51,616 nt of DNA, from positions 1 through 51,616 of the IMG/VR virus record IMGVR_UViG_3300046313_000435, one strand, 5' to 3'. This document shows positions 11,189 through 25,828 of this stretch, piece by piece. Below the pieces are notes generated by a model. It did not search any database. It had not been told where the DNA came from and was given only the letters and a program-made list of their open reading frames with translations. The DNA comes from a virus. Lineage: Duplodnaviria > Caudoviricetes. The translations under genes and the position numbers were made by a program. Every line of letters starts with the position of its first letter. Position 1 is the stretch's first letter.

Positions 11189-11241
11189 TAATGAATAGAA
11201 GGTAGCGATTAACGCTACCGCGAATGATGAGGCACAACAAA

Positions 11242-11490
11242 ATGACAACTACTCTTAACACACGAAAATACTCAGCACCAGAATACGACGGTTTCCAAAC
11301 AGCCCCCGAGATACTTCAGGCAATCGAGACCGTAGCAGGTGACGATATTTTAGCCGATTCTGTCGCTCGCAAAATCTGGACAGCTCCAACACAGGAGCAA
11401 GCTAACGCAGTTTACAAGATTGCGTTTTCGTTCACCGAGGAATCAGAGCTGTCTTGGGGAACTGAGAACGTTATCCGAATAGGAGTGTAA
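11242..11490 (+). CDS. hypothetical protein
   Basis: GAGGCACAACAAA-ATG at 11242, in the frame of track ORF 11224..11490. Confidence 0.65.
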   Translation: MTTTLNTRKYSAPEYDGFQTAPEILQAIETVAGDDILADSVARKIWTAPTQEQANAVYKIAFSFTEESELSWGTENVIRIGV

Positions 11491-11616
11491 CGACTAAGAG
11501 GGGCTGAAAGGCCCCAATGCAGGAGGCAAAATGATTACCTACGAATTTCTAGAAGAGTTTACCCTAACCATCATCACGGGCCTCTGCCTGGTGTTGTTTG
11601 TTGTGGACAGGATGCT

Positions 11617-11913
11617 ATGACCACCCAAGGCCCCTCATCAGTCCCCCGCCACATCGCCTCTGCGATAGCCACCCTCACGATGCCCTCAAGGTTCGAGTGC
11701 TTCATTCGAGCTTACGGTGACGGCGAGAGGGCACGATTTGAGTGGGAGGGCTCTCTTCCGCAAAGGGAAGAAACGAGAGATAGGGAGCAGGCTCAGAAGG
11801 CTATCGATTCCGCTCGGGCAGTGTGTGCCGAGAACGGCTGGGAGTGGGGCGAGGTGGAGAAGTTGGCGAGAGAGTTATACCCGCAGTTGTTTAAGGAGGA
11901 GCGTGGAAAGTAG
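11617..11913 (+). CDS. hypothetical protein
   Basis: Operonic ORF. Confidence 0.55.
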   Translation: MTTQGPSSVPRHIASAIATLTMPSRFECFIRAYGDGERARFEWEGSLPQREETRDREQAQKAIDSARAVCAENGWEWGEVEKLARELYPQLFKEERGK

Positions 11914-12079
11914 GTGGATTAAATGCAGCGATAGGATGCCGGAGAAGCCTGGGTATTACCTAACGTGGGACGGCCATAGTCGTCATGTAACCATCTTTGC
12001 CGAGTATACAGGCTGGCTACGCCTTCCCAGCATCACCCACTGGAGGCCCCTACCGGAGGCACTGATATGTACTCCGTAA
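11903..12079 (+). CDS. DUF551-like protein
   Basis: GTG after AAGGAGG; WIKCSDRMP...ITHWRPLPE. Confidence 0.75.
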   Translation: MESRWIKCSDRMPEKPGYYLTWDGHSRHVTIFAEYTGWLRLPSITHWRPLPEALICTP

Positions 12080-12489
12080 GTCAGCTTGAAGACTTCGGTC
12101 TCTATCAACAATGGGGCGAGCAGCATAAGTACAAGCTCACGCCCGAAGGTAAATGGCTTACCGCCGACAGCAAAAATGCAGCTCTTGAAATGGCCCAGGA
12201 GGCCGCAGTCCGCAACCGAGACAAACTACGAACTGCGAGCCAACGATATGACGACGCGAACGCCCGAGAGTTAATCGAGTCACATGAGAAGTGGGGCGGG
12301 TTAACTGATGAGCAGTTAAGAACGATCATCGAGAGAGACGCCCGAGAGGCCAAGGCGTTGCAGAACAATCGTGAGATAATCGACGGCAGATATCGTAGGA
12401 CCAGTGCAGCAACTGCCAACCAAGGAGCGAGAGAGTCGTTTGAAGTGGTGCAAAAAATGAAACGATACTTGGAGGCCCGTGTTCCATAA
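12067..12489 (+). CDS. hypothetical protein
   Basis: GGAGG RBS; operonic. Confidence 0.6.
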   Translation: MYSVSQLEDFGLYQQWGEQHKYKLTPEGKWLTADSKNAALEMAQEAAVRNRDKLRTASQRYDDANARELIESHEKWGGLTDEQLRTIIERDAREAKALQNNREIIDGRYRRTSAATANQGARESFEVVQKMKRYLEARVP

Positions 12490-12913
12490 CATCCCCACCG
12501 TAGTATTAAGAGAAGTCGTCGCCCAATACCGCCGCCCCATAGAGGCTCTAAAGATTGTCAGCGGTCAGGAGGAAGCAGCCCGCTATCTTCAAAAGATTGT
12601 GGACAGTAACCCACGAGAGCACTTTATAGTTCTGCACCTGGACGTTAAGAACCAAGTCGTGAGTTATAGTGTTACCGCCATCGGCACCCTCGATGCCTGC
12701 CTCGTACACCCCCGCGAGATTTTCCAGTCGGCGATACTGGCAGGAGCTTCAAGTATTATTATCGGGCACAATCACCCCTCGGGAATATTGGAGCCATCGA
12801 GGGAAGATATCGCAGTGACGCGAAGGCTCAAAGAGGTTGGGGAGATACTGGGCATCAGGGTCGTCGATAGCTTGATTGTCGGGCAGGAAGGGTTTACCAG
12901 CATAATGCACTAA
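12479..12913 (+). CDS. radC: RadC-family JAB domain protein
   Basis: REHF...GTLDACLVHPREIF...HNHPSG..EPSRED...VVDSLIVG. Confidence 0.9.
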   Translation: MFHNIPTVVLREVVAQYRRPIEALKIVSGQEEAARYLQKIVDSNPREHFIVLHLDVKNQVVSYSVTAIGTLDACLVHPREIFQSAILAGASSIIIGHNHPSGILEPSREDIAVTRRLKEVGEILGIRVVDSLIVGQEGFTSIMH

Positions 12914-12921
12914 GGAGAGGC

Positions 12922-13161
12922 ATGAGAACAGAAAGCATAAGCGGCTGGATTGCCGCACACGACCACCTCCCCGGCTTCAACCGCATGGTAAAGATTAGCA
13001 GTCAGGCAAGAGGATGCCCAAAGATAACCGAGGTTAAGGCAGAAGAAGCTTCGCTTTCGCAGTGTGGTAACTGGCTTGTGTGGGGCTTCGATGCGGAGGG
13101 AAAGCGGGCAATCATTCGAGAGTACAACCTCTATTTGATTACCCACTGGAGAGCGATTTAA
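12922..13161 (+). CDS. hypothetical protein
   Basis: AGGAGAGG RBS. Confidence 0.6.
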   Translation: MRTESISGWIAAHDHLPGFNRMVKISSQARGCPKITEVKAEEASLSQCGNWLVWGFDAEGKRAIIREYNLYLITHWRAI

Positions 13162-13175
13162 CCTATTCTTTTTTG

Positions 13176-13205
13176 TTGACACGCGGTAGTGATTCGCGCT
13201 ATTGT
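13176..13205 (+). promoter_or_regulatory. Early promoter
   Basis: TATTCTTTTTTG-TTGACA-N18-TATTGT. Confidence 0.7.
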
Positions 13206-13262
13206 CATTTTGTTGAGTGAGTCGAAAGCATTCAACGAAACAAACGTTAACTTTGGAGGCAT

Positions 13263-13531
13263 ATGATAAATCCAGTCGAAGCAGCAAAGGCAATCAAAGC
13301 AGAGCTCAAAGCAAAGTATCCAACACGGAAATTTTCCGTACGAAGCGAACGCTTCTCAATGGGCAACTCGGTTAACGTGGTCTGTGATGAAGAGATTCTT
13401 GCACAGGTTCGCGACTCATCGAGAAGTATGAGTATGGAGCTTATGACGCTATGCAGGATCTAGCGTACTCAGTTCACAATCCCAACCTACCACAAGCCAA
13501 GTATGTATCTGCATACGTCTGGAGCAAGTAA
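13263..13531 (+). pseudogene. LPD29-like protein with a single-base frameshift at about 13414
   Basis: AAKAIKAELKAKYP..KFSVRSERFSMGNSVNV continues in another frame as LIEKYEYGAYDAMQDLAY...LPQAKYVSAYVWSK*. Confidence 0.6.
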
Positions 13532-13587
13532 CGGACTACCGCCGGGGGCTCGAAAGGCCCTCGGCCCTAAAGACTACAAGGCACACC

Positions 13588-13845
13588 ATGACAACCAAAT
13601 ACCCCGACCTGCAATACCATACCGAATCGGGCTACCTGTTCGCCGAGCTACCGCCAGAGTGGAGCGAGCCGCTTTACTTTGATGACTATACCGATGTCCC
13701 CGAAGATACGGCCAAGGAGATTGCAGGCTGGCTTGAGCGACAAGGCCCCAATCTCACCATTCGATTCTACGAGGATGCGGACCCCACCGCCGCCGATGGT
13801 TCGCGAGATAACTATGTCTATTGGTTCACGAGGGCACAATCATGA
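13588..13845 (+). CDS. hypothetical protein
   Basis: AAGGCACACC-ATG; operonic. Confidence 0.6.
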   Translation: MTTKYPDLQYHTESGYLFAELPPEWSEPLYFDDYTDVPEDTAKEIAGWLERQGPNLTIRFYEDADPTAADGSRDNYVYWFTRAQS

Positions 13846-14081
13846 GCATCTTTACCTGCAATGCCTGCCACCAAGATGTAGACTCCGACAACTTCCCCTA
13901 CGAGCTCGTCAGGATTAACACCCGACAGCTTTGCATCGATGATAGACCAATCTGCGAAACGTGTTTGATGGAGTTGGTTGAGGCAGTCCGAGATGGGAGC
14001 GGGAAGGACTTTGAGTACTGGGACTGCATGAAGGATGAATACGTCTCGGTCTTGAAGCTGATTAACGAAAACAAACTTTAA
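13821..14081 (+). CDS. Zn-binding hypothetical protein
   Basis: CNAC...CETC; start probably MSIF at 13842 (ATGA overlap). Confidence 0.6.
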   Translation: MVHEGTIMSIFTCNACHQDVDSDNFPYELVRINTRQLCIDDRPICETCLMELVEAVRDGSGKDFEYWDCMKDEYVSVLKLINENKL

Positions 14082-14090
14082 CGACTACAG

Positions 14091-14111
14091 GGCTCCTTCG
14101 GGAGCCTTTTT
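14091..14111 (+). terminator. rho-independent terminator ending the early region
   Basis: GGCTCC-TTCG-GGAGCC followed by TTTTT, at the convergence of the two transcription directions. Confidence 0.8.
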
Positions 14112-14142
14112 CCTTTGTAACGCTATATAGCACCGCCCTGAA

Positions 14143-15144
14143 TCACTTTGCCGGAACGGGTTCAAACAGGACTCGTTCCGCTTTATTACACCAAAAGAAC
14201 CTGAGCCACCAAGCACCCAAGACGTGGGGACGGAACCCCATCTGGACGGCCCAACCTTCTGAGCCTTCTTTGATATCATCCTTGTAGGACGGTATCCCGA
14301 GGTGCAGCTGCTCGTCGTGGTAAACGTGCCCATTTCTCCCGAGTCTCAACCTTGCAACTGTCTGATTGTAAAACGTGTGACTGTGGCCTGTCATGAGAAT
14401 GTCGGCATCGGGAACGAAGGATGCTCTACGCTCATGCGCGTTAAGGTTGGCCGACGCCTTTCCTGAGCTACTGCCGTGATGATAGTTGGCGATAACCTCA
14501 GATGACCGTCTACCGTCGTAGCAGAAGTTAAACATCAGAAAGCCGGAGTACCCGGCGTTGTGAATGCTAGAACCGGTTTTTGAATTCAACAGAGCGACTA
14601 TCCGTTCCGTGATGTTTATTTCGGACCTCTTGAGGATAGAGGTCTCATGGTTACCCATCGCCAGGCCGATTATGTTGTGGGCATATGGCTCGAACCATTC
14701 CGCTGCACCCTCTGCGATGGCGTCAAAGTAATGGGGAACGTTATACTCTGACCGCATCGTTCCTTTTTCGCCCCGAGGATCGCTTCGCCCGTGTAAAATG
14801 TCAGCGAGGTCTCCGTTATCGAATACAGCCGCCCCCCGTTCTACCGCTTGATCGAGATGCTTCTTTTGCAATGCCCTATTGCTCTTCGGGCTATCCCAGT
14901 GGCGATCCGAAGACACGAGACACCACCACTCCCAGTCTTTTGATCTTGAGCATGGGACGTTAACTCTGAAGACGTTCTTACTTAGTCTGTCAGTTGTCCA
15001 CGTTATCTTTTTGCTTCCGGTACCCAAGCCGCCAGAGGATTTTGGTAAGGTCGGTTGCGACGGCTTCGATCCATTCTTCGCTTTTTGTCCAGTCGGACGC
15101 GTGGAGGATTTCGTGGATGGTCGTGTCGAGCGTTTGCTTCTCAC
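14143..15144 (-). CDS. calcineurin-like metallophosphoesterase
   Basis: DRH, GDLAD, GNHE, HHG and GHSH motifs; start uncertain. Confidence 0.85.
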   Translation of the reverse strand: MRSKRSTRPSTKSSTRPTGQKAKNGSKPSQPTLPKSSGGLGTGSKKITWTTDRLSKNVFRVNVPCSRSKDWEWWCLVSSDRHWDSPKSNRALQKKHLDQAVERGAAVFDNGDLADILHGRSDPRGEKGTMRSEYNVPHYFDAIAEGAAEWFEPYAHNIIGLAMGNHETSILKRSEINITERIVALLNSKTGSSIHNAGYSGFLMFNFCYDGRRSSEVIANYHHGSSSGKASANLNAHERRASFVPDADILMTGHSHTFYNQTVARLRLGRNGHVYHDEQLHLGIPSYKDDIKEGSEGWAVQMGFRPHVLGAWWLRFFWCNKAERVLFEPVPAK

Positions 15145-15271
15145 TCAGTCCTTTTCGGATGCGGATAACCCGCCCAGGCTCGTTGGGGTCTTCGCAGTTG
15201 CCGAGGGTATTCTTTCCCAGATAGGGAACGAACCGGACCTCATACCTTCTTCCCAAGATGGTGACATGCAT
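14990..15271 (-). CDS. small HExxH zincin-like metallopeptidase
   Basis: LGNC...IRI...TTIHEILHA...EE. Confidence 0.75.
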   Translation of the reverse strand: MHVTILGRRYEVRFVPYLGKNTLGNCEDPNEPGRVIRIRKGLSEKQTLDTTIHEILHASDWTKSEEWIEAVATDLTKILWRLGYRKQKDNVDN

Positions 15272-15445
15272 ACCCTGCCCTTGAGGCTAAGGGTAACACG
15301 AGACGGGGAGGGCCTGGCTAGTAGGGAAAGTTACCCTTTCTTTTTCCACCCCCTGGACACTTGGCGACTCACAATCCGGGTCAGCAAAGGGCCGTACATG
15401 CTCGAATACGCAGGCACTGCCCCGCAACCCTTATTTTCAGAAACG

Positions 15446-15473
15446 AAAAAAGCCCAGGAATTTCCTGAGCTTT
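15446..15473 (-). terminator. terminator downstream of the tRNA fragment
   Basis: Minus strand AAAGCTCAGGA-AAT-TCCTGGGCTTTTTT. Confidence 0.6.
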
Positions 15474-15498
15474 CTTGCCGGTGCGACCGGATGCTTAG

Positions 15499-15547
15499 CT
15501 CCCCCGGGTGGGCTCGAACCACCGACACACGGATTAACAGTCCGTTG
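15499..15547 (-). pseudogene. 3' half of tRNA-Asn(GTT), att core
   Basis: Minus strand ACGGA-CTGTTAA-TCCGT, GTGTC, GGTGG-TTCGAGC-CCACC, CGGGGGA-G; the D arm and 5' acceptor strand are absent. Confidence 0.85.
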
Positions 15548-15607
15548 TGGCGTACCAAAAACTGAGGAAAAAGCAGTATAGCAGAGAAGGGCGACTCATA
15601 ATCCGGG

Positions 15608-16759
15608 TCAGCCTGTTTTTTTCGGATTTGTTGCCTTGCCGAACGCATCGCTTGAGATCATTAGGTAATGGTCTTCAGAGACTTGGACGCTATGGCCCAC
15701 CCAAGATGACACGGCATGAGCAGGACAACCCAGGTCAATCATGTGCGTTTCGAAGCTACGACGAAGGGTTTGAAAAGCATCCTCCCACATATCCAGCCCC
15801 GCCTTCTCAACGATCTTTGGCAGCTTCCTCCGCACGTTGGAGTACGAGGTTTCCACCACCAGGTCCCCCGTAGCGGCATCTTTAGCAGCAAGAAGTATCG
15901 GGAAGAGCTCCGCAACGATGGGGCAAACCCGCTCTTTGGTTTTGCCGGCGGCAATTCTAATGCTCTTCTTTTCCAGGTTGATGTCGGTCCAGGAAAGGGT
16001 GAACAGCTCCGATGGCACCCTAAGGCCCGCATACCGCCCAAGGCCAACGATAACCCGCCAGGGTAGGCTAGGACATGCCTTGATAAGCTTAATCGCATCC
16101 TCGGGCGTTACATAGTGCCTGACCGATGCCGCTACCGCCGTTGTCTTTAGCTTTCGGCAGGGGTTAACCTCAATCCACTCAAGGTCGCAGGCGTAATCAA
16201 AGAGCTGCTTAGCGTATCGGTTCAGGGTCCGGGCGTAGGCAAGGCTTCCACCGGTCTCGAATACCCAGGACTCAAACGCCGAAGCATCGGCTACGGTAAA
16301 GGACTCCACGGCTTTTGACTCCCCGAACTTCTCCACGAGCTTACCGAGGCTCTGACTCAGTTTACCAATGGACCTGTTCGCCAATGATGGGGTCTTCAAT
16401 CTGGTAAACCGCTCAATGAGCATTTTTAGAGAGTGTTTTCCGTCGCCCTTTTTCGCCCTTGCCGCTGTTAACCCAATGGTAATCAGCCGATCAAGAAGAA
16501 CGTCCCCGTCCGGTAGGCTGCCGAGCCATGAAGCCACTTCGCTATCCGGCGAGTTACCCGATAGTTTACAGGCAGCAAGGTGCTCCACTCTTCGTAGGAT
16601 GGTTTCGGCTTGCTTCTTCGGGGTTCGCCCCAATCTTATTTTTGGGCGAGCATTGCCGATCACAACCATTATCACCCGCAACCCGTCCGCACTTGTACTC
16701 AATGAGGCCATCTTGTTTTCCTTGGTTCGCAAAAAGAAATGCGGGCGGCAACTTGCCAC
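15608..16759 (-). CDS. int: tyrosine integrase
   Basis: GLRVPSE (R), K, QTLRRSF (variant HxxR), WVGHS, HY catalytic Tyr; probable start MASLSTS. Confidence 0.9.
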   Translation of the reverse strand: MASCRPHFFLRTKENKMASLSTSADGLRVIMVVIGNARPKIRLGRTPKKQAETILRRVEHLAACKLSGNSPDSEVASWLGSLPDGDVLLDRLITIGLTAARAKKGDGKHSLKMLIERFTRLKTPSLANRSIGKLSQSLGKLVEKFGESKAVESFTVADASAFESWVFETGGSLAYARTLNRYAKQLFDYACDLEWIEVNPCRKLKTTAVAASVRHYVTPEDAIKLIKACPSLPWRVIVGLGRYAGLRVPSELFTLSWTDINLEKKSIRIAAGKTKERVCPIVAELFPILLAAKDAATGDLVVETSYSNVRRKLPKIVEKAGLDMWEDAFQTLRRSFETHMIDLGCPAHAVSSWVGHSVQVSEDHYLMISSDAFGKATNPKKTG

Positions 16760-16791
16760 CCGCTTGAATGAACTTTAGGGCGTTACCCTTG

Positions 16792-17145
16792 CTAGGCAAC
16801 GTACTGCTCTTCTTCGCAGTAGTTCAGCATCACGTCATCAACCAACATCGAAGCAAGTTGTGCCGCGAGGCTTCTTTTGAAAAACTCTGCCTTATCGCGA
16901 TAAGGCTGTGGGATCTGCTCATAATCGACCAGCCGCGAGAGCAGGAGGTCGCCTAGCCGCCCCTCGCTGACATGCTCCTTTAGCAGCTCATGGGCTTTGG
17001 CTGCCAAAATTCGAGCAAAGGTCATCTCGGGCAATAGCCCCCGCTCTTCTGCCGCTTTCCATAGCTGTGCATGGTCCGCATGAATCTCATCGAGCCCTGC
17101 CTCAAATGCCGAGCGTACACCAATCCAATCAATAATACTTGTCAT
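16792..17145 (-). CDS. hypothetical protein (N-terminus similar to 17404..17838)
   Basis: ATGA coupling with the upstream gene; shared W..V...F..GL.E...K.AE..G...AR.L pattern. Confidence 0.6.
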   Translation of the reverse strand: MTSIIDWIGVRSAFEAGLDEIHADHAQLWKAAEERGLLPEMTFARILAAKAHELLKEHVSEGRLGDLLLSRLVDYEQIPQPYRDKAEFFKRSLAAQLASMLVDDVMLNYCEEEQYVA

Positions 17146-17531
17146 CTCAAATCCCCTTTTGTCTCGCTGGTGATGTCAATGCCGTCCAAGGTCAGCGAGT
17201 CGTAACCTTGGGGGCATGGTGAATGAACTGTATCTAATGAAGTCCGTGAGGCAATGAACGCCTCTAGTGCGCTTAGGCTGTAACGCTTACACGTTCCAAT
17301 TCTGATGCAAGATATCTCTCCATCGTTAACCAAAGACCATAGCGTTCGCTCTGAGATGCTCAACAATCGAGCCGCATCCCTGCTACAAACCAGCAGCCGG
17401 TCATCAAATGATGTCGGTATCGCCGCACCCTGGGCATTGTTGCCGTCGGATTTGTTCGAGGTACTTTTCTTCATCGCTTGGATCTCCCATCTTGGTAAAC
17501 TCAATAAGCCCCTCGACCAAAACACTCGCAA
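17142..17531 (-). CDS. excisionase-like HTH_17 protein
   Basis: LLVCSRDAARLLSISERTLWSLVNDGEISCIRIG...YS...LEAFI; start probably MKKSTS. Confidence 0.8.
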   Translation of the reverse strand: MRVFWSRGLLSLPRWEIQAMKKSTSNKSDGNNAQGAAIPTSFDDRLLVCSRDAARLLSISERTLWSLVNDGEISCIRIGTCKRYSLSALEAFIASRTSLDTVHSPCPQGYDSLTLDGIDITSETKGDLR

Positions 17532-17838
17532 GAAACGCGCTCAGGCTTTGCCCTTTCATTCTGGCCCGAGTCTCATAGGTGGTCGGAAACCATCCAAAGT
17601 CGCAAAGCCTCGACTCGATTGCAAAGGCAATGTCATGCTCGTCTAGTACAACGTTGCCGCTCTTTGCAGCTATGACAACATTGCCGCTCTTCGTAGCGTC
17701 CCTCGACAACTTACGAGCCACAACAACGTCAAGCCGATACCCAAGGTCTTCGGCTACCTTGTTCCAGTGGGCTTTGTTCTCAAAGACTTCGCCCAGTCCA
17801 GAGTCAAAAACCTTTTGCACTTCAGTCCAGTTTGTCAT
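17404..17838 (-). CDS. hypothetical protein with C-terminal CPGCG
   Basis: ATGA coupling to the coupling-protein gene; internal KSGNVV duplication. Confidence 0.6.
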   Translation of the reverse strand: MTNWTEVQKVFDSGLGEVFENKAHWNKVAEDLGYRLDVVVARKLSRDATKSGNVVIAAKSGNVVLDEHDIAFAIESRLCDFGWFPTTYETRARMKGQSLSAFLASVLVEGLIEFTKMGDPSDEEKYLEQIRRQQCPGCGDTDII

Positions 17839-19124
17839 TTCAATGCCTCAATCATTTCGCTAGTAACGTGGATACCGAGACGACCGAGATCACCGACGGT
17901 CATTCGGGGTAATACTTGATCACTATCGGGCCGCAACGTTCTCGCTGCGGGCTCCTTACTCAGGGTGACATCATCCCGAAAGCGGCAATCAAACTTGCCC
18001 GACTCATCCGGGAAGTCGAAGTAGCCCTCGATGCGGTCCTTGGCGTAGTTTGCCTTCTTCAAACACTGCCGCAATTCATCCGGCAACACGTTGGGCCGCA
18101 TCTTGACTGACTTATGCTTGTCATCAATCTGTTCAACGACCTCAACGGCCCCAAGGCAATCACTGGCAAACTTAGCGGTCTTAACGCCGTTAATCTTGAG
18201 GAACAGTTTGTAATCGGCAGCGGATAGGATTGTGTCGGTTCTTTCCTTGCCGAACCTCCCCTCCACCATCGATACTTCATGGGCGGTCAGGCAGGTGGAG
18301 ATTCCACTCTTGGCTCCGCGTACGATGTTGTGCTCGATGCAGTCCAATGGCTGCAATGTTGCAAACTCATCAATATCGAAAAGCACAACTTCCTTGCTCT
18401 GCCGTGAGAGATACCGCGTTGAGGTATAATCGAACAGGAACGCGAACACCTTATCCAACGATGCCGCGTATTCATCCGACCATTCCAATACCAATACTCC
18501 ACTTTGTATGGGAAGCGTTATTCGCTTCTTGCAGGTCATATCGATAGCAGCAAAAACACCCAACGGCCCGAACCTTGAAACGAGCGTCACCTGGGTATCT
18601 CGCTTACTATCGTTACCGCCGAACACCCCATAAGGATTACCGAGATCAGCCGCTACGCTCAAAAGAGTTTGCAATGTAGGGTTGCACGTTATCCGCACGA
18701 TGTCGGCAAGCAATGCTTTACCTGGTGCGAGCTTGTGCAACAACGCCGTGCAGTTCTCGATCATAAGCCTGCACATCGATTGAAAGAACTCGTCCTTTTG
18801 GTCTGCAATCGAAGGGCTCAATTTACTCGCAAGGAGCTGCCGCCCCGTAGCGGTGGTTATCATGCTCGCAAAATCAATCCCAACACCATCAGCGTATTTC
18901 GTGCTGACGGTGTATATCGGTGTCCCTTTCGGCGCTTTGTCGAGGTACCAGTCATACATCTCATGGGCATTGTCCAAGGTGTACACAATGGCACCACCGT
19001 TAACGTAGTCCCTACGGATACGCTTCAGCAGTGCCGACTTGCCACTTCTCGGGCTACCGAGGATGAGCACACGAAGCGGGCCATCGTTGGTGTTGAATGT
19101 GTGGTCTCCTAGTCTGATTTTCAT
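17835..19124 (-). CDS. TrwB/TraD-like type IV coupling protein (nucleotide-binding region, no TM anchor)
   Basis: LILGSPRSGKS Walker A, FDIDEFATL Walker B, RGAKSG, TAKFASDCLG, VLPDEL; in the same operon as the relaxase. Confidence 0.75.
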   Translation of the reverse strand: MKIRLGDHTFNTNDGPLRVLILGSPRSGKSALLKRIRRDYVNGGAIVYTLDNAHEMYDWYLDKAPKGTPIYTVSTKYADGVGIDFASMITTATGRQLLASKLSPSIADQKDEFFQSMCRLMIENCTALLHKLAPGKALLADIVRITCNPTLQTLLSVAADLGNPYGVFGGNDSKRDTQVTLVSRFGPLGVFAAIDMTCKKRITLPIQSGVLVLEWSDEYAASLDKVFAFLFDYTSTRYLSRQSKEVVLFDIDEFATLQPLDCIEHNIVRGAKSGISTCLTAHEVSMVEGRFGKERTDTILSAADYKLFLKINGVKTAKFASDCLGAVEVVEQIDDKHKSVKMRPNVLPDELRQCLKKANYAKDRIEGYFDFPDESGKFDCRFRDDVTLSKEPAARTLRPDSDQVLPRMTVGDLGRLGIHVTSEMIEALK

Positions 19125-19465
19125 AGCGGCCTACCTCGGATGTTCTTATACTTCGGCATGTCGCCGATGATTACACCCCACACGAGAGCGCCAAAGATTG
19201 CGGATGCAATTCCAAAGTTGCGACTTTCGTTGTGGTCGAAACCGAACCAGCTGAAGGCTAGGTAAGCTGGAACGGTAAACACCGCTGCAACAAACGTCAT
19301 GATGATCGCTCCAACAATCATCCTGAATAGCCAGTCAACGATGTATATGAAAGGGCTGATGAACAACGCCCAAAGGAATTTCAATATCATCTTTAAGACC
19401 CTTTCTTCCTTGCGACATAAATACCGCAGCCCGTAGCGAAATATGCAATGGACCAGGAAAGCCAC
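19121..19465 (-). CDS. membrane protein
   Basis: Two to three hydrophobic helices; ATGA coupling to the T4CP gene. Confidence 0.6.
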   Translation of the reverse strand: MAFLVHCIFRYGLRYLCRKEERVLKMILKFLWALFISPFIYIVDWLFRMIVGAIIMTFVAAVFTVPAYLAFSWFGFDHNESRNFGIASAIFGALVWGVIIGDMPKYKNIRGRPL

Positions 19466-19689
19466 TCCGGTGGCTCCGCTCTACCAAAGCAAAGCACTAC
19501 CGGAACCACTGCAATGAAGACTACGAACATCCCAACCTCTAGGACGACGAACGATAGTACGAGCCATCGCCACAGCGTGATTGCTGCGGACCTGCCGACC
19601 TTGTATAAGGCTTCTTTTTTCATAACGACTGACCTCTTTTTTGCTCTTGCTTCTCCCACAACTTCGGGCCGATGACCTTCACCGACCAC
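19393..19689 (-). CDS. membrane protein
   Basis: Hydrophobic helices; start probably MKKEAL, overlapping the relaxase stop. Confidence 0.55.
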   Translation of the reverse strand: MVGEGHRPEVVGEARAKKRSVVMKKEALYKVGRSAAITLWRWLVLSFVVLEVGMFVVFIAVVPVVLCFGRAEPPEWLSWSIAYFATGCGIYVARKKGS

Positions 19690-20927
19690 CCATGCTTTCT
19701 CGCCAGCATCCGTAGCTGGTCTTCTTGTTCTTCGGTCTTAATCGCCTTGCCGCGAATGATGACCTTGGTACCTTTTGGCAACGTTAACTTTGGAACCCTG
19801 GCCAACTTGAATGCCTTCTTGCCTATCGCGAGAGCGTGGTCCAATGAATCGCACTTTGTTCGTCGTATCGCTGTAATTGCTGCACGATGGCCGGTCATGG
19901 ATGTTGGTTTGCTAACGTCCTCAACGAATTGATCGAGGTTACGCACCCTGACCTTTTCCTGCCCTTGAGCTTTGACAATCGCCCAGGCTTTGACAGCCCG
20001 CACAAAAGGCTCCTTGATGAGGTCTTGATAAATGCTTTGCCAAAAGCCCCTTGGTTGTTCGAGCTTCTGGGCCTGGCCGTCGTTGGCAAAAACCTTTGCC
20101 CACTTCTTTGATTCTTCGCGAATGTCGAGATTCTTTTGCTTCTTTGGTCGCGTATTCTTCAGGGCGTAGGCCAACGTCTTACCCTTTTTCGGCAGCTTCC
20201 TGCCCTTCTTAACCTCCTGTTCCTTGATGTACTCTATTGCCTTTTCTTTCCGCGCCGTTCGATTAAACTTATTCGTGATGCCCTTGGCGATTGCCTGCTC
20301 TGACTTATCATCGAAGTCCATTGCAAAGCCCGTAGCCTTTTCAAGGCTGCCGCAAAGGTCGATTTGCGTGATGCGATTGTCAGCCTTGATGTTGTGAAAC
20401 GCGGGCCGAGCGTCCAACGTTCTTATCTGCTGTGTCTCTTTAACGATACACTTGTCAGCTATGAATACATGGACGTGGTACGATGCATGGCCTTCACGAG
20501 TCGAGGCGTGAACCATGCTCACAGCTAGAAGCTCGCACTCTTTCTTTACTGCACCACCTGCCCCAGTGCGGGCCGCTAATCTTTGCTCCAACCTATCAAG
20601 CAGCCTTTGCACCACTGGCTTGATGCCTTCATGCACCGCCTTTTGTTGTCCCTCCCAGGACATCATCGCCATGGCTTTGGATACCGAGGGCGATAGAAGA
20701 ATTGTGGCCTCAAGGAAAGCCATCTTGTTTAGCTGAGCCGTCTTCGATATTGGCTCGCCATTGGGCATAAGCCCTTTCGAATACTGAATGATGTGAAATG
20801 GATCGGTAAAATCGATGCCTAGTTTGTCGGTGCCATCGGTGCCGAAAATGCCAAGCTGCAAAGCCTCTTTGATGACTTCTTTTTCTCGGAGGTATTTGCC
20901 ATCGTTGTGGTTGTTGAGCTTGAGCAC
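19620..20927 (-). CDS. TrwC/MOBF-like HUH relaxase (no helicase domain)
   Basis: N-terminal Tyr (KYL), EATILLSPSVS (cf. DxTFSAPKSVS), HASTREGHASYHVH (cf. HxTSRxxDPxLHTH), RTLDAR, TRPKK. Confidence 0.75.
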   Translation of the reverse strand: MLKLNNHNDGKYLREKEVIKEALQLGIFGTDGTDKLGIDFTDPFHIIQYSKGLMPNGEPISKTAQLNKMAFLEATILLSPSVSKAMAMMSWEGQQKAVHEGIKPVVQRLLDRLEQRLAARTGAGGAVKKECELLAVSMVHASTREGHASYHVHVFIADKCIVKETQQIRTLDARPAFHNIKADNRITQIDLCGSLEKATGFAMDFDDKSEQAIAKGITNKFNRTARKEKAIEYIKEQEVKKGRKLPKKGKTLAYALKNTRPKKQKNLDIREESKKWAKVFANDGQAQKLEQPRGFWQSIYQDLIKEPFVRAVKAWAIVKAQGQEKVRVRNLDQFVEDVSKPTSMTGHRAAITAIRRTKCDSLDHALAIGKKAFKLARVPKLTLPKGTKVIIRGKAIKTEEQEDQLRMLARKHGWSVKVIGPKLWEKQEQKRGQSL

Positions 20928-20960
20928 GGCATAGGGCTTTCAGGGTGGAAGAACGAAAAA

Positions 20961-21070
20961 GGGGACTCCGTTCCCCAAGAACAATCAACGTGTCGAACTT
21001 TCGAGCACGTTTCGCACGTATGCCGAAACTGGCATACCAGCAACACTGGCGAGCCCCCCAAGCCTTTCGC
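20961..21070. other. oriT-like cluster of inverted repeats upstream of the relaxase
   Basis: GGGGA/TCCCC, AACGTGTCGA/TCGAGCACGTT, GTATGCC/GGCATAC and CCAG/CTGG hairpins back to back. Confidence 0.4.
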
Positions 21071-21805
21071 GTAAAACCATCCGGGTATCTTGCTCATTGT
21101 TCCATTCCTGGTAACACACTAAGCAAGCAAGCTACCCACATCCTCCTAGGTGGTCTCTGTCCTACTGTCCGAATGACAATGCCCGACCGCTGCCTTGCAG
21201 TCTGACGACACGCTAAAACTGAGATGAACCTTTGGACTCCGCCCGTAGTCGCTAACAACCTCCTTTCTTTCATACGGTTGCGTTGTACACGAGACGCGCT
21301 TTACGACTCCCTAGAACCATTACGCCTGAGCGTGGGAGTCGCTCCCGAATTGATGCCGGACGTCATGCGGTAGTCATGTCGCTATTAGCAGTTACGCTAA
21401 GTGGCGAGCGAGTCACCACAAGGATTCCTCCCCGCGATACTCACCCCGCATCGTGCGGGCTTTCATCGACTCAACGAGCAAGCCACGATTACCGATCTCG
21501 CTCGTCCGATTCGCAATTTGGCACCATCTCTATCCGCATTTACCCCAATGCCTTACGCTACTCACCACCGAGCGTCACCGCTTGATGGCTCCAGTTCAGG
21601 GCAAGGTAACGCTCTAAAGGCCCTCCCTCTAAAGCGTCCCCTCGTCACGGTCCTTCCGTGATTCGTCCGACACTCCATCGTCGCAACAAAATCCTGCACG
21701 GCTTTTATTTTCCTTGCACCCGCCGGGCACCTCTCGATGCAAACGGGCGCGACCTAAGTTTATGTTGATAGTTACGCGACACCTTGAGGATCGCACATCA
21801 AGGGG

Positions 21806-22402
21806 CTAACCGTACATCTTGGAAGCGACGGCCAGGACATTATGAGCATATAACCTACCCTCCGGCCCAAGGTCTTTGATGATGCCCTTGAGGGACTTTG
21901 CTTTATTCTTTGCGAGAAGGTTATCCACCCTCCCATAACCTTGGTTGTATGCGGTCAAAGCCAGCTCTTTGTCACCCTTGTAATAGTCGATAAGGTGCCT
22001 CAAATAAGCCGCCCCGATAAAGACATTCTGCCTGTGGTCGAATGGATTGTATCGACCACCTACGTTCAATCTCGCGTGCCACTCTCTGCCCGTCCCGTCA
22101 AGCAATTGAGATAGGCCCTTGGCCCCGACCGGACTGACCGCGTTAGGATCTTTACCGCTCTCGATTCTCACAAGTGCATGCACTAGACTTCTAGGGATGC
22201 CCTGCTTATCTGCTGCCTGGTTGATAGCGGCATCGATAATTGAAGGTGGTGCTTTCGGCTTAGTCCCCCACCCTCTCAGAAGGTCATACTTCGCCTTACC
22301 CGATGGCAGTTGCCCAACTCCAGAAACTCCAGAGTTGGGCGTCAGGAAGACGAAGCCGAGTAGTCCGGCTGCTATAAGTAAGCCGACATCCTCGGAGGCC
22401 AC
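21806..22402 (-). CDS. SLT-domain lytic transglycosylase with N-terminal TM segment
   Basis: ALVRIESG...AVSPVGAKGLSQL...GAAYL...ALTAYNQG. Confidence 0.9.
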   Translation of the reverse strand: MASEDVGLLIAAGLLGFVFLTPNSGVSGVGQLPSGKAKYDLLRGWGTKPKAPPSIIDAAINQAADKQGIPRSLVHALVRIESGKDPNAVSPVGAKGLSQLLDGTGREWHARLNVGGRYNPFDHRQNVFIGAAYLRHLIDYYKGDKELALTAYNQGYGRVDNLLAKNKAKSLKGIIKDLGPEGRLYAHNVLAVASKMYG

Positions 22403-22677
22403 TATTTACCCTTCCCTTGAGCAGCAGAAGCTTTGCCGCTGCTCATTGGGTCAACGCCCATCACCTGTGATTGAAACATGATGTAGCAGGTCACGAGGCC
22501 TGAAATCATGAATACGTGAATCACCGTGGTAATTAGCCCCGATAGACTGAATATGTTGTCCTTCACTCGCGTCATCAGTGTTGGGCCATCTGACGAAAAG
22601 AGCTTCTTAGTAACTATGAAGATCAAAGCGCCTACCGCTAGGGCTCCAATCAGTTCTTGTAGTGGTATAGTTCCCAT
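22402..22677 (-). CDS. small two-TM membrane protein
   Basis: Two hydrophobic segments; translationally coupled to the SLT gene. Confidence 0.6.
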   Translation of the reverse strand: MGTIPLQELIGALAVGALIFIVTKKLFSSDGPTLMTRVKDNIFSLSGLITTVIHVFMISGLVTCYIMFQSQVMGVDPMSSGKASAAQGKGK

Positions 22678-22752
22678 AATTCTTAATCTCCAAACGTAAG
22701 GTTAGCCCACCGCGCAATTGCGGAGCAACCACGAAGTGGGCTTGTTTAGTAT

Positions 22753-23049
22753 TTACGAGCCGTTAGCCTCGTCTGCTGTTGCTGCTGGCTCTGCCTGGGG
22801 ACACCTCGAAGGCATCACATAGCAGATAATCGGCTTACCTGTCCTGTACGTTTCCTCCTTCACCTCTCTCTTGGTAACCGAACGATGCCCCACCGTGAGA
22901 TGGAACTCTCCGAGCCCGTTCTGGTCCATCAAAGCACACCCCGACGTAGTCACCATAATCAGCCCGCAAACAATCGCCAAAAGTGCGTAGTGAATGAATG
23001 TATCCTTCTCAGCTATTCTCATTTTAAAACCCTCCAAAAACCTAATCAA
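22753..23049 (-). CDS. putative lipoprotein
   Basis: Hydrophobic stretch ending in TTSG-C lipobox; start probably MRIAEK at 23022 after GGAGG. Confidence 0.55.
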   Translation of the reverse strand: MIRFLEGFKMRIAEKDTFIHYALLAIVCGLIMVTTSGCALMDQNGLGEFHLTVGHRSVTKREVKEETYRTGKPIICYVMPSRCPQAEPAATADEANGS

Positions 23050-23268
23050 TTAAACGTTAACTAAACCATCGTTGCGGAACTCTTCTTTCACCGCCCTCAA
23101 CTCCTCCATGAGAGCATCGAAAACCTGCATTGGCTTACACCCGCGAGCGTGCAGGTAATCCCAATGGATTCCCTGAAACGTATCGAGGTGCCGGCCCCAC
23201 ACGAGCATCGTTAGCTCGTTCATTCTCTTTTTCCACTCCTCAAGAGTGAGCTTGCTTCCCTTTTCCAT
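23050..23268 (-). CDS. hypothetical protein
   Basis: AAGGAGG RBS. Confidence 0.6.
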   Translation of the reverse strand: MEKGSKLTLEEWKKRMNELTMLVWGRHLDTFQGIHWDYLHARGCKPMQVFDALMEELRAVKEEFRNDGLVNV

Positions 23269-23278
23269 CGTTGCCTCC

Positions 23279-23707
23279 TTACTCGTTATTCAAAACCGCG
23301 TGACTGTAACTCTGAGAATCCCGGTCATGCGGTACCAGCTTCCAGCCCCCCACAACCGGCTTAAAGCCCTCTTTGTTCCAGGCCGGCGTATACCAATGCT
23401 CTGGCTCGTACAAGCTAACCAGGCCCACTATGCGGCCCGCAGGGGCGTATAGTGCTGGATACCTACAACCCCACTGCTCTTTCGTCACAAACGACTGAGC
23501 CTCTTTCAAGCTTTTGCCGTAGACCGCAGCCAAGAGGATGGCGGTACTGATTACCTCGTGCCGCTGCTTGTGTTCGTATGATGCGATTGCCGCTTTTTCC
23601 TGTGCAGTTAGTTTCACGTTGTCTCCTGTCGTTTGCAGTCGCTTGCTGCCTGTATATAGAGATACGTCAAAAGCATCAAAGTGCTCAAGGTATTTGTTGC
23701 AACGCAA
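23279..23707 (-). CDS. hypothetical protein
   Basis: ORF; start probably the GTG (VKLTAQ) after AGGAG. Confidence 0.55.
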   Translation of the reverse strand: MRCNKYLEHFDAFDVSLYTGSKRLQTTGDNVKLTAQEKAAIASYEHKQRHEVISTAILLAAVYGKSLKEAQSFVTKEQWGCRYPALYAPAGRIVGLVSLYEPEHWYTPAWNKEGFKPVVGGWKLVPHDRDSQSYSHAVLNNE

Positions 23708-23773
23708 AAGAATAGTTGTCAGTTAGGAGCTAACCGATTGAAATGACAATGCAATAGAAGGGGCTAACGCCGT

Positions 23774-24046
23774 TTATTTATCGGACAATTCGATGCTGAG
23801 GTAATCCCGAGCAAGAGAAAGCAGCCGCTTCCATTGGGTATTGATGTAATCGAGCTCCTTTGAAACCTTGCCCTCAACATTGTCGGGAAGAGTTGGGAGA
23901 GCAACGTATAGAGCAGCAATGAGCATGTTCACGGCGAGAACAACACGCTTAATGTCGCCCTCGTACTTTGTGACGTACTTCGGCAGCAACGAGGAAATGA
24001 GTTTGGAGATGAGCTTGTCTTTGAGTCCGCCGAAGAATGTTCCCAT
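23774..24046 (-). CDS. hypothetical protein with one hydrophobic helix
   Basis: End of the lysis region. Confidence 0.55.
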   Translation of the reverse strand: MGTFFGGLKDKLISKLISSLLPKYVTKYEGDIKRVVLAVNMLIAALYVALPTLPDNVEGKVSKELDYINTQWKRLLSLARDYLSIELSDK

Positions 24047-24058
24047 GGCTCTATAATG

Positions 24059-24283
24059 TCATTTCCAAATCGAGTGCACTAGTACCCCAGTACCCTGCCG
24101 GCACCACTCAAGAGGTCTGCCGGCCTCATCAACCTCGGGTTTTTCGCACACCTGGGAGGGGACTGTCTCCCAATACTCAATATCGTAGTCATCCGGCATC
24201 AATGAGCAGGAGCCCGCATGAAGTGTCAGGTAAATTAGCAAGAAAACTTTACTCGCCGACCACGCCATTTCTGAAAAATCCAT
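24059..24283 (-). CDS. putative small lipoprotein (spanin-like position)
   Basis: Hydrophobic N-terminus with HAGSC, further Cys residues, located in the lysis cassette. Confidence 0.4.
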   Translation of the reverse strand: MDFSEMAWSASKVFLLIYLTLHAGSCSLMPDDYDIEYWETVPSQVCEKPEVDEAGRPLEWCRQGTGVLVHSIWK

Positions 24284-25418
24284 ACCTTAGTAGTGGACTC
24301 AGGGGCCCGAAACAAGCTCCGCCCTCATGCAGTGTAATGAACTGTGACCGGTCAAAGATCTCCATCGGTGTGAGGTTGGTACCAGTCCCGCTATAGTAAC
24401 GGTTACCACCTCCATCGAACGGACCGAAGAACCTTAGCGAGCCGACGAAGCTACCGCTCGGAAAGGAATGGATACTTACCGAGTCCCCGCGATAGGGTGT
24501 TATCCAAAGAGGCTTGTTCGCTCTGATGTCACCGATGGCTTTGTCATCAGCGAATTGCTTAAATAGTCGCGGTCGTTCAATCGCCCTGCACTCTGCCGCT
24601 TCAGGAACGATAGGCAATGGCTTGAGGTACTCAAATAAAGCTCTGAGGTGTTGCAGGCTAGGTGCTGCCCTTCTTGCGCGAGGGTCCACGAACGGCCCTG
24701 ATGCGAGCCTTAGATTTAGAGTACGCGACCAGATGAACCTAGTACAGTGAACGAAGTCCTGTAGAAATAGAGGAAGGTTAATGTCCTCAACACTATCGCC
24801 GTCTAAAGACACGTTGCATGGTGGTGGCACTCTCGCATTGATTCCATGCCGCTCTAGCTTGAAGCCCTTTGATGCGTTAACACCGCCGACTGGGTTCTCT
24901 ACGATTACCGCCCAAGGGCAAGCCTGAGCGGCTACACGAGCTTGTGCGCGAAAAGCCCTCTTAGAGAGGTTGTGCTCTAGTGTTGGTGACAATTCCAGGA
25001 CGACACTCGGGAATTGGCTGAAGAGGTCGCAATACTTCCGTACTCTAGTATCAAGATGCCGCACGAGCTTAGGATCGTTTCGCTCCCAAGCACGAGAGAA
25101 CCCCTGCTTACTGTAGCCGAAGTGTGGCTCGTATCTTCCGAGCTGACCATTCCTTAACCCCGGCCCATTGAAAAAATGCGAACGCCAGGATTTCACCCGA
25201 CCAGTAGCAAGTACCGCTCTAATCGGTCGCAGAGAGGTTCCGAACGTCCAATCAAGATTACCGCCAACAAAATCCGGTGGTATTAGCTCAACAGTATCCT
25301 TCAAGGGAAACCGTGGATGTTGCAATCCGAGAAGGTCAAGTCCAACGTCTTGAGCAAATGCCGACTGCACGAATAGGAATAGAGCCCAGAGTAGCTTACG
25401 CATAAGGAAACTCCTCAC
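24249..25418 (-). CDS. secreted protein of unknown function (389 aa)
   Basis: Signal peptide MRKLLWALFLFVQSAFA; coupled to the lysozyme gene. Confidence 0.7.
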   Translation of the reverse strand: MRSFLMRKLLWALFLFVQSAFAQDVGLDLLGLQHPRFPLKDTVELIPPDFVGGNLDWTFGTSLRPIRAVLATGRVKSWRSHFFNGPGLRNGQLGRYEPHFGYSKQGFSRAWERNDPKLVRHLDTRVRKYCDLFSQFPSVVLELSPTLEHNLSKRAFRAQARVAAQACPWAVIVENPVGGVNASKGFKLERHGINARVPPPCNVSLDGDSVEDINLPLFLQDFVHCTRFIWSRTLNLRLASGPFVDPRARRAAPSLQHLRALFEYLKPLPIVPEAAECRAIERPRLFKQFADDKAIGDIRANKPLWITPYRGDSVSIHSFPSGSFVGSLRFFGPFDGGGNRYYSGTGTNLTPMEIFDRSQFITLHEGGACFGPLSPLLRYGFFRNGVVGE

Positions 25419-25827
25419 GACATATCATCGCAATGACCCGTTCAGATCTCTCGCCGACCTGCTTTGCATACGCCGACTTCCGTATGCCGGCCTCGACTCC
25501 TGCCCAATCTTCCCGGAGCCCACATCGAAGGGTATTACGGAAGGCGAGCATCCTTTGAAAGCCAAGATTGAACGCGAAGTTGACCCATCCCAGTCGCCGG
25601 TTATCGCTCCACTTCTCCCAGAGCCCTTTTCCGAAGATGGAGATGCAAGCCTTCTCCGCTGACTGAACATCTTCGGCGAGCATCTGATAGGCAGTAGTTT
25701 CAGTGATGCCGACATCAGAAAGATTTCGTCCTGCACCTATCGTGGTTTTCCCAGCAGTGCACAGATACGGCTTTAGCTTCAGTCCCTCATCTCTGACAAA
25801 CATCTTACGGACCTTTAGAGTGTCCAT
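25396..25827 (-). CDS. GH24 T4-like lysozyme (endolysin)
   Basis: DEGLKLKPYLCTAGKTTIGAGRNL...NFAFNLG...QVGERSER; start at MDTLK (25827). Confidence 0.85.
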   Translation of the reverse strand: MDTLKVRKMFVRDEGLKLKPYLCTAGKTTIGAGRNLSDVGITETTAYQMLAEDVQSAEKACISIFGKGLWEKWSDNRRLGWVNFAFNLGFQRMLAFRNTLRCGLREDWAGVEAGIRKSAYAKQVGERSERVIAMICREEFPYA

Positions 25828-25828
25828 C

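Follow-up and report, generated by a model that had tools for sequence, protein, structure and literature searches.

In accounts of gene flow, phages and conjugative elements count as distinct vehicles. A locus in a tailed virus (Caudoviricetes) raises the question of whether a virion-forming genome can include, as a part of its own, the DNA-processing half of a conjugation system. The virus is represented by IMG/VR record IMGVR_UViG_3300046313_000435, and the whole record (51,616 bases) is the window analyzed here. One block of genes in the window encodes a predicted relaxase and a type IV coupling protein (T4CP) together with an excisionase, an integrase and a phage attachment site (attP), and the original prediction was that the phage and an integrative mobilizable element (IME) form a single excised molecule. 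The present analysis indicates that an IME-type excision-and-transfer operon inside a virion-forming genome is a conserved trait of a clade of temperate phages predicted to infect planctomycetes. We are highly confident of the anatomy of the block and of its vertical inheritance. The full statement, namely that the window represents the genome, excised or replicating, of a freshwater Pirellula-like planctomycete's temperate siphovirus with an IME-type excision-and-transfer operon, conjugative mobilization included, is an even call.

The window is a near-complete, linear contig of a temperate siphovirus, which CheckV estimates to be 94% complete. When 30 further open reading frames (ORFs) were scanned with PHROGs, a standard siphovirus map emerged. 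From the right end, the minus strand encodes TerL (truncated at its 5' end where the contig stops), portal, protease, major capsid and neck proteins, two tail-tube paralogs, tape measure and Dit, followed by a tail protein, a J-like central fiber, another fiber, a GIY-YIG homing endonuclease, a lysozyme and an SLT transglycosylase. All parts of the siphovirus virion-and-lysis gene set (TerL, portal, protease, major capsid, tail tube, tape measure, Dit, J-like protein and lysin) are thus present. On the left, the plus strand encodes Sak4, SSB, a helicase and a DNA-repair protein, and a primase gene on the minus strand runs off the left end. The primase and TerL genes are co-directional across the missing few kilobases, an arrangement consistent with a single genome, circular or circularly permuted, that is interrupted here by a short gap. 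The GC content is level along the window (0.48-0.55), and tRNA gene calling over the entire window yielded neither a called gene nor a full tRNA.

The transfer block is located between the lysis genes and the early region of this map, as originally proposed, and consists of tightly packed, co-oriented genes, all on the minus strand (Table 1). In reading order, these are a small upstream ORF, the relaxase, two membrane ORFs, the T4CP, ORF144, the excisionase, ORF117 and the integrase, followed by attP. The pairs relaxase/ORF98, ORF114/T4CP, T4CP/ORF144 and excisionase/ORF117 are joined by 4-nucleotide ATGA overlaps or abut each other. One flank comprises the SLT transglycosylase, lysozyme, tail, head, portal and TerL genes, and the other an exonuclease-like gene and the plus-strand early genes. 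Fifty ORFs of the window, a set that does not take in every small ORF, were scanned with Pfam, PHROGs or both, and these scans agree with hydropathy and gene overlaps on the predicted calls (relaxase, T4CP, helix-turn-helix (HTH) excisionase, integrase and two membrane ORFs, coupled and co-oriented). The integrase is the only integrase or recombinase among the 50 ORFs, as had been claimed, and the Pfam and PHROG scans of this set, made with no dedicated CONJscan run, recognized no family of type IV secretion system (T4SS) or mating-pair proteins. PHROGs names the integrase and the excisionase and has no family for the relaxase or the T4CP, suggesting that these two are not usual phage proteins. 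The excisionase gene is bracketed by the paralogous ORF117 and ORF144 (29% identity, E = 1e-11), for which no homologs were detected at E 1e-3 in the related phage G308 (see below) or other relatives.

The TrwC domain of the relaxase (PF08751) scores 70.1 bits against a curated cut-off of 25. In an alignment of nine family members, Y12 is invariant (9/9); the window protein contains H142, H151 and H153, of which H151 is invariant (9/9), the H-x-H pair is present in eight sequences and the first histidine in seven. The family profile matches the solved structures of TrwC (9e-23) and TraI (3e-22), with the histidine segment aligned onto the His-rich segment of TrwC; the alignment to TrwC begins after the Y12 region, and a second conserved tyrosine was not seen in the family. 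An AlphaFold2 model of the relaxase (pLDDT 82.7) retrieves TrwC in a Foldseek search (E = 4e-12, TM-score 0.66 on the target), and every one of the 23 matches listed at E <= 0.001 (27 counted) is a conjugative relaxase. The 435-residue protein comprises the trans-esterase domain and a 150-residue C-terminal domain conserved only among the phage homologs.

The T4CP matches PF10412 (TrwB_AAD_bind; 3.2e-15, 56.4 bits) and PF12696 (TraG-D_C; 3.7e-13, 50 bits), both above cut-off, as well as PF02534 (1.6e-5). Profile matches to an HUH relaxase and to TrwB, which the original prediction implied, are accordingly both present (PF08751 and PF10412), and the profiles of the two families hit TrwC and TrwB themselves. 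A Walker A motif, GxxxxGKS, is found near residue 25, and an invariant D252-E253 pair follows a hydrophobic strand, in the hhhhDE form of Walker B (alignment A2). The polypeptide begins with its P-loop, and its alignment to TrwB is confined to the soluble construct; this form of TrwB, without the N-terminal membrane part, is matched by the family profile at 7.4e-15. Each of the two small membrane ORFs contains one or two hydrophobic 19-residue windows (Kyte-Doolittle mean 2.3-2.8), and an ORF of 95-130 amino acids with one or two strongly hydrophobic stretches occupies the same place in four related phages (G305, G306, G307 and G308) and in the chromosomal Pirellula locus L006. The ORF with two transmembrane (2-TM) segments next to the T4CP gene may therefore be a split-off membrane anchor of the coupling protein (a 'split T4CP'). 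With intact genes and catalytic motifs, both enzymes look active. Only 7 relatives of the relaxase and 11 of the T4CP were found among 5.8 billion clustered proteins.

Related phages were reached among the IMG/VR records through the J-like tail protein. Megablast of positions 14000-22500 against phage and plasmid collections gave no match, and peptide-pattern scans with the relaxase and the T4CP over viral, metagenome and genome contigs found no relatives, blanks that reflect the method given the relatives later reached through the tail protein. The same scan returned nothing for a 389-residue ORF and, for the exonuclease-like ORF, one distant locus (L002) in a record without a T4CP. The T4CP profile matches four of the five nearest relatives (G305-G308; E from 3e-137 to 9e-50) and the relaxase profile three of the five (G305, G307 and G308), whereas the 25 more distant records contain no real cassette match, the single hit being a P-loop match at 2e-4. 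The cassette is thus found in near relatives and not in distant ones.

The gene order in G308 is DNA-repair protein, exonuclease-like gene, integrase, excisionase, T4CP, 2-TM ORF and relaxase, with identities to the window proteins of 29% for the integrase, 54% for the excisionase, 39% for the T4CP, 30% for the relaxase and 60% for the lysozyme. Beyond the relaxase follow HTH_3 and DUF932 genes and two unknown ORFs, and then the SLT gene (PF01464, 9.3e-24), small ORFs, the 389-residue ORF and lysozyme. In G305, the order is exonuclease-like gene, methylase, integrase (on the other strand), DUF5131, T4CP, 2-TM ORF and relaxase (PF08751, 1.2e-11). The exonuclease-like homologs at the same place are 50% (G308) and 57% (G305) identical to that of the window, and in both phages the same early genes adjoin the same block. 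In the window, G308, G305 and, with a match below the Pfam cut-off, G306, a tyrosine integrase gene is located within about 2.5 kb of the T4CP gene. The identity of the T4CP to that of the window falls from 39% in G308 to 31% in G305, 29% in G307 and 24% in G306, and that of the J-like tail protein falls in the same order (64%, 60%, 59% and 47%). Two further relatives are implied only by equal contig sizes for the relaxase and the J-like protein. One is a case of two contigs, the longest of 39,481 bases (relaxase 40% and J-like protein 63% identical), and the other a 63,449-base JGI contig (a member of the 80% relaxase cluster; J-like protein 78% identical). A tail protein identical to that of the window occurs on a contig of 59,148 bases. 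The location at the same place in relatives and the divergence in step with the tail protein show the predicted cassette of relaxase, membrane ORF and T4CP to be an old trait that has been vertically kept in this phage clade. Such retention of the DNA-processing half of a conjugation system through deep divergence suggests selection for the cassette.

The excision module allows a host to be predicted. The attP core is the 3' part of a tRNA-Asn gene and lies between two 23-nucleotide direct repeats, identical at 22 of 23 positions, in agreement with the claim of an att site with arms on both sides. Read on the minus strand from 15545 to 15499, the fragment comprises the anticodon arm (GTT), the variable loop, the T arm and the acceptor 3' strand, so that the phage would restore the tRNA upon integration; the ORF called at 15331-15648 only reads through this fragment. 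The exact 47-mer is present in 21 stretches of a species-representative genome collection, all from metagenome-assembled genomes (MAGs) of Planctomycetota (15 Pirellula, 3 Planctomycetaceae, 1 Pirellulaceae and 2 Planctomycetota), and lies inside a complete tRNA-Asn gene in 8/8 loci checked. In the contigs of four freshwater runs, foreign sequences agree with the window over 15509-15547 only, beyond which they read on as a tRNA D-arm. Given that all exact matches to the bacterial site (attB) come from Planctomycetota MAGs, the predicted host is a Pirellula-like freshwater planctomycete. A hairpin like the candidate terminator at the tRNA fragment also follows the tRNA-Asn gene in L006.

Three Pirellula MAG loci at tRNA-Asn encode integrases 52-54% and excisionases 44-47% identical to those of the window. 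In L006, a 37-kb contig, these two genes are followed by a T4CP (PF10412, 4.7e-48), a 116-residue 2-TM ORF and an 843-residue TrwC relaxase-helicase (8.5e-66), and beyond the relaxase by VWA, DUF3102, ParA and RepA genes; no phage genes were found among the 15 ORFs scanned in this locus. The gene order of the block is, by this comparison of predicted genes, that of a native planctomycete mobilizable (or conjugative) element. The window T4CP and its counterpart in L006 are only 21% identical (E = 0.003), and the window relaxase has weak matches in 6/301 Pirellulaceae genomes. The contrast between the integrase (53-54% identity) and the T4CP (21%) leads us to read the block as a probable mosaic, in which the cassette is an old branch of the phage clade and the int-xis pair has been exchanged more recently with resident elements, an exchange that the mildly deviant composition of the block fits.

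The DNA-processing and excision genes form one co-oriented string next to attP, which is the logic of IMEs and of ICEs (integrative and conjugative elements), and which makes mobilization the most economical reading of the cassette. Under this scheme, the integrase and excisionase would excise the prophage as a circle, and the relaxase would nick an origin of transfer (oriT), probably within 400 nucleotides upstream of its own gene, and remain attached to the 5' end. Anchored through the small 2-TM protein, the T4CP would pass the nucleoprotein on to a mating channel whose genes lie elsewhere in the cell, with a host or phage helicase responsible for unwinding, and the phage could then spread to new hosts both through contact and as virions. 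Like an IME, the window element possesses its own integrase, excisionase and att site; given its full virion and lysis gene set, it would not depend on a helper for all transfer.

Several observations weigh against this scheme. No oriT was identified, the only candidates being hairpins at 20961-20976 and 21083-21137; the Pfam scan of the relaxase detected no AAA_30/PIF1 match that would correspond to the superfamily 1 helicase domain of TrwC and TraI; and the T4CP has no membrane domain of its own, such as the N-terminal transmembrane anchor. Helper channels seem scarce in the host family. In a sample of 301 Pirellulaceae genomes, mostly incomplete MAGs in which the models may miss divergent forms, the VirB4 family PF03135 is present in a single genome and TIGR00929 gives long matches in four, none over the curated cut-off. 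The circularity of the phage genome is inferred, the contig being linear and about 94% complete, and no lysogeny repressor was recognized among the window ORFs scanned (G308 encodes an HTH_3 repressor-like protein upstream of the relaxase operon). The block is also the most deviant 5.3-kb segment in tetranucleotide use (0.203, compared with a mean of 0.164, standard deviation of 0.017 and maximum of 0.197 over 47 segments), and the G+C content at third codon positions is 0.60-0.61 in the block against 0.47-0.57 in the structural genes; a compositional difference from the flanks is thus present in mild form in these two measures and absent from the overall GC level. Finally, the window integrase gene is upstream of and co-directional with the tRNA fragment, whereas in the three Pirellula loci the integrase gene is convergent with a complete tRNA-Asn gene, so that the core is inverted relative to the integrase gene (loci compared: window 15499-15612 with L006:529-1874, L009 and L012). 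Mainly because of the missing oriT, the relaxase without a helicase and the scarcity of helper channels, we rate conjugative mobilization, the best reading of these genes, as having an equal chance of being right or wrong.

In the same 301 genomes, TrwC relaxases (42/301) and T4CPs (72/301), often encoded by adjacent genes, are far more frequent than VirB4. PF12846 was also tried as a second VirB4 proxy and was discarded, having produced P-loop matches only. Either the mating-pair apparatus goes unrecognized in this family or most of its elements need rare helpers. Since the cassettes are common and VirB4, the ATPase universal among T4SSs, is nearly absent, the Pirellulaceae cassettes, including those of this phage clade, might export DNA through a channel other than a classical T4SS, which we consider an improbable, if consequential, variant. 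If it holds, these phages would be two-route elements, spreading in virions and by contact, in a phylum with an undescribed conjugation apparatus.

The strongest competitor of mobilization is that the relaxase and T4CP have been co-opted for the phage cycle or for conflict between elements, for instance, to prime rolling-circle replication with the relaxase, to process the circle after excision or to interfere with resident elements that carry a relaxase and a T4CP, and that the phage is not conjugated. This would fit the retention of the cassette in the phage clade alongside the near absence of VirB4 in the host-family sample, the loss of the helicase domain and gain of a clade-specific C-terminal domain in the relaxase, and the divergence of the T4CP from that of the Pirellula element (21% identity, against 53% for the integrase). 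However, the phage already encodes a primase, a helicase, SSB and Sak4, the order of relaxase, small membrane ORF and T4CP is that of a bona fide chromosomal element, and we know of no role of a TrwB-like T4CP outside secretion. On balance, co-option appears possible and clearly less probable than mobilization.

The remaining explanations question whether the block belongs to the phage at all, and on this point assembly data are informative. Among the 13 sequencing runs listed, at least half of the sampled words of 13500-23400 occur in 6, of which 3 may be the source. Contigs of four public freshwater runs (X1, X4, X5 and X6) were aligned to positions 9000-28000. X1, which may be the source sample, contains a 39.4-kb contig from a different assembler that extends without a break from 12219 past 28000. 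In X4, X5 and X6, all 30 bins of 9000-28000 are covered, and the support from these runs consists of this cover and the lack of alternative joints, none of the pieces listed spanning the whole block. Among the listed pieces, attP is crossed by X5 15119-16216, and the border between the SLT gene and the structured RNA described below by X4 21484-25961, X5 21167-22117 and X6 21582-22611. No alternative joints at the block were reported across the four runs, depth is level across attP in all four, and the only loose ends at the block borders are tRNA look-alikes. No second copy of the att core was found in the window stretch L001, and no repeat pair flanks the block. The block is part of the phage molecule, and the junctions at which a break had been considered show none. 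The original view of phage and IME as one molecule thus stands with respect to the single integrase, single attP and lack of a second att site, and is refined in that the block is not a fresh fusion, the cassette being old in the clade.

That the block is a passenger IME, recently inserted into or recombined with this one phage, was offered as an alternative in the original prediction and is very unlikely. The mildly deviant composition of the block would suit a newcomer, as would the 53% (integrase) and 45% (excisionase) identity to chromosomal Pirellula elements with the same gene order. Such an insertion is at odds with the lack of a second att copy and of flanking repeats around the only integrase seen, with the T4CP and relaxase genes at the same place in relatives at 24-64% protein identity, their divergence keeping pace with that of the tail protein, and with the lack, in four runs, of any contig that skips the block. 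Even less credit can be given to the idea that the window captures the junction of a tandem array at tRNA-Asn, with a hybrid att site and two halves derived from two elements. The contig is linear and incomplete, and tandem accretion of phages and conjugative elements is documented (PMC13651849). But the halves are complementary, with structural and lysis genes on one side only and replication genes on the other only; CheckV completeness is 94%, with the primase and TerL genes co-directional across a short gap; depth is level over attP in four runs; and G308 and G305 have the same early genes beside the same block. An assembly chimera of a phage and an unrelated mobilizable element, the other alternative initially raised, has nothing in its favor beyond the unusual gene content and is practically dismissed by the X1 contig from a different assembler that spans the block, the coverage of 30/30 bins in X4-X6 with no joints, and the same architecture in four other viral records.

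The segment at 20.93-21.8 kb, originally taken for an empty junction, turned out to contain a conserved structured RNA. In the 0.9 kb between the SLT and relaxase genes, there is no credible ORF except one of 44 residues, and this intergenic DNA can be aligned to noncoding sequence in G308 and G305, a striking result considering that the surrounding proteins are only 30-60% identical. The predicted fold is more stable on the minus strand than on the plus strand (-66.3 vs -42.6 kcal/mol, with covariation terms of -4.5 vs -1.0). A covariance model built from three sequences and searched over 31 records has full-length matches in six, namely the three builders, G307 (6e-37), G306 (3e-29) and G309 (2e-12), and none in the 25 distant records. 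In the six-sequence alignment, which was fitted to the model and so favors the structure, although three of the six sequences were not used in building it, 89.1% of the cells pair, compared with 74.3% in shuffles. Compensatory changes are seen in 42/77 pairs (shuffle mean 20.8; 0/500 shuffles reach 42), and slid controls give 35-45% pairing and 9-14 compensatory pairs. Rfam yields nothing at the gathering threshold for this region, and a snoRNA match (E = 0.91) was rejected as due to chance. A BLAST-type DNA search with the region missed G308, for which the covariance model was needed. The RNA of about 290 nucleotides is thus a new structured RNA candidate, with covariation support and seemingly confined to this phage clade. 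G309 has the RNA and lacks both the T4CP and the relaxase, so that the RNA goes with the phage clade rather than with the transfer cassette.

The 44-residue ORF has no Pfam match, and sub-threshold ribbon-helix-helix (RHH) or NikA-like matches were obtained only for its counterparts in G308, G305 and L006, so that a role as a relaxosome accessory protein is a weak proposition. In relatives, a DUF932 protein is encoded between the RNA and the relaxase operon (L122 (G308) 12135-15310, L125 (G305) 14337-15080 and L136 (G309) 12375-13127); no protein remnants of the G308 and G305 cargo genes (HTH_3, DUF932 and others) were found in the window at 20.9-21.8 kb.

Table 1. Features of the transfer block and its borders (window coordinates unless a related record is named)
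Feature	Position	Strand	Evidence or comment
Exonuclease-like phage gene, P' side of attP	14143..15144	-	phrog_7339 2.7e-12
23-nt direct repeat, candidate P' arm-type integrase site	15363..15385	-	family D3; function inferred
Short hairpin then T-run, just 3' of tRNA fragment	15455..15467	-	candidate terminator, rebuilt tRNA
attP core, 47 nt, tRNA-Asn(GTT) 3' part	15499..15545	-	exact 47-mer in Planctomycetota MAGs
23-nt direct repeat, candidate P arm-type site, overlaps integrase stop codon	15590..15612	-	repeat search
Tyrosine integrase	15608..16759	-	PF00589 6.6e-12; phrog_1 5.4e-32
ORF117, paralog of ORF144	16792..17145	-	no Pfam or PHROG family
Excisionase-like HTH_17 protein, start probably ATG 17474	17142..17531	-	PF12728 4.2e-10; phrog_66
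ORF144, paralog of ORF117	17404..17838	-	protein comparison
Soluble T4CP (TrwB/VirD4-like ATPase), no membrane domain	17835..19124	-	PF10412, PF12696, PF02534
Small 2-TM ORF (ORF114), stop overlaps T4CP start	19121..19465	-	hydropathy
Second small membrane ORF, likely start ATG 19623 overlapping relaxase stop	19393..19689	-	hydropathy
HUH relaxase, TrwC/TraI (MOBF) fold	19620..20927	-	PF08751 3.1e-19
G+C-rich hairpin and T-run, between small upstream ORF and relaxase start	20961..20976	-	attenuator or oriT-hairpin candidate
44-aa ORF, weak RHH relaxosome accessory candidate	20985..21119	-	ORF call
Structured RNA, ~290 nt (model R1), 13 helices, after late/lysis operon	21325..21611	-	covariance model
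SLT lytic transglycosylase (phage lysin or VirB1-like)	21806..22402	-	phrog_2013, phrog_342, phrog_669
Structured RNA in relatives	G305:36643-36950; G308:47559-47849; G307:45185-45493; G306:56544-56861; G309:53751-54035		model matches

Several observations concern genes and positions around the block. The SLT transglycosylase, which adjoins the transfer cassette in the window and occupies the same place in G308, may serve in the tail or in lysis, or may be VirB1-like and open the cell wall; besides it, the window encodes a lysozyme (25396-25935). The GIY-YIG homing endonuclease gene (29545-30204, minus strand; phrog_314, 4.1e-39) is located between tail or virion genes for proteins of 899 and 542 residues. 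All four runs aligned to the window have an extra C behind position 13414, among small plus-strand ORFs, where the record probably carries a 1-nucleotide deletion error. At 11265, 26522 and 27273-27311, contigs of several runs match the window up to these positions and continue as unlike sequence, which suggests strain variants with alternative early-gene and tail-fiber (899-residue protein) segments.

These phages offer a natural system for asking whether a virus uses mating as a second route that bypasses a receptor-limited host range. The analysis also provides a putative host and attB for a group of planctomycete phages, the mismatch between relaxase/T4CP and VirB4 in Pirellulaceae, and a candidate new structured RNA.

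To our knowledge, prophage conjugation is known from tandems in which the ICE is a separate element. Our literature search, which did not extend to supplementary tables such as data S1 of PMC13651849, where related cases might be listed, found no tailed-phage lineage that encodes both a relaxase and a T4CP. Huang et al. (Sci Adv 2026, PMC13651849) report 612 phage-ICE tandems in seven phyla and describe the arrangement as 'rather than a hybrid element'. The streptococcal tandems of that study resemble the window phage in that a prophage leaves the cell by conjugation machinery as well as, in principle, in a virion. They consist, however, of two accreted elements and rely on the relaxase, VirD4 and VirB4 of a full ICE, whereas in the window the cassette lies inside the phage, with one integrase and attP and no recognized T4SS; two elements, each with an integrase, and a complete T4SS are not found there. 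Phi1207.3 of Streptococcus pyogenes, termed a 'conjugative prophage', is similar in being a siphovirus-like prophage of about 52 kb whose movement is reported to fit conjugation; in PMC4260502 the mechanism is called unknown and a relaxase goes unmentioned, whereas the window phages have an explicit relaxase and T4CP and are known from their genes alone. Phage-plasmids and P1-derived plasmids with mob/oriT likewise mix phage with plasmid or conjugation functions. According to PMC10879196 and PMC12282955, all but two P1-like phage-plasmids are without mob/oriT, and the P1-like elements are extrachromosomal and gained mob/oriT mostly after the loss of phage functions, in contrast to the window element, which is integrative and looks virion-competent.

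At the protein level, the closest reference is R388. TrwC (PDB 1omh/1qx0) shares with the window relaxase the trans-esterase fold with the His triad and, probably, an N-terminal Tyr, and TrwB (1e9r) shares with the window T4CP the nucleotide-binding and all-alpha domains. The identity in structural alignments is 15-19%, and, unlike R388, the window family has no helicase domain, a single conserved N-terminal Tyr and a T4CP membrane part that is possibly a separate ORF. The IMEs that carry a relaxase and a T4CP, represented by L006 (a class treated in PMC11389934), share with the window the order of int, HTH xis, T4CP, small membrane ORF and TrwC-family relaxase, and L006 also shares the tRNA-Asn target and the lack of recognized mating-pair genes. 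Compared with L006, the window element has a shorter relaxase (435 vs 843 residues) without the helicase, a T4CP with 21% identity and an inverted att core, and it adds the virion, lysis and replication genes of a phage.

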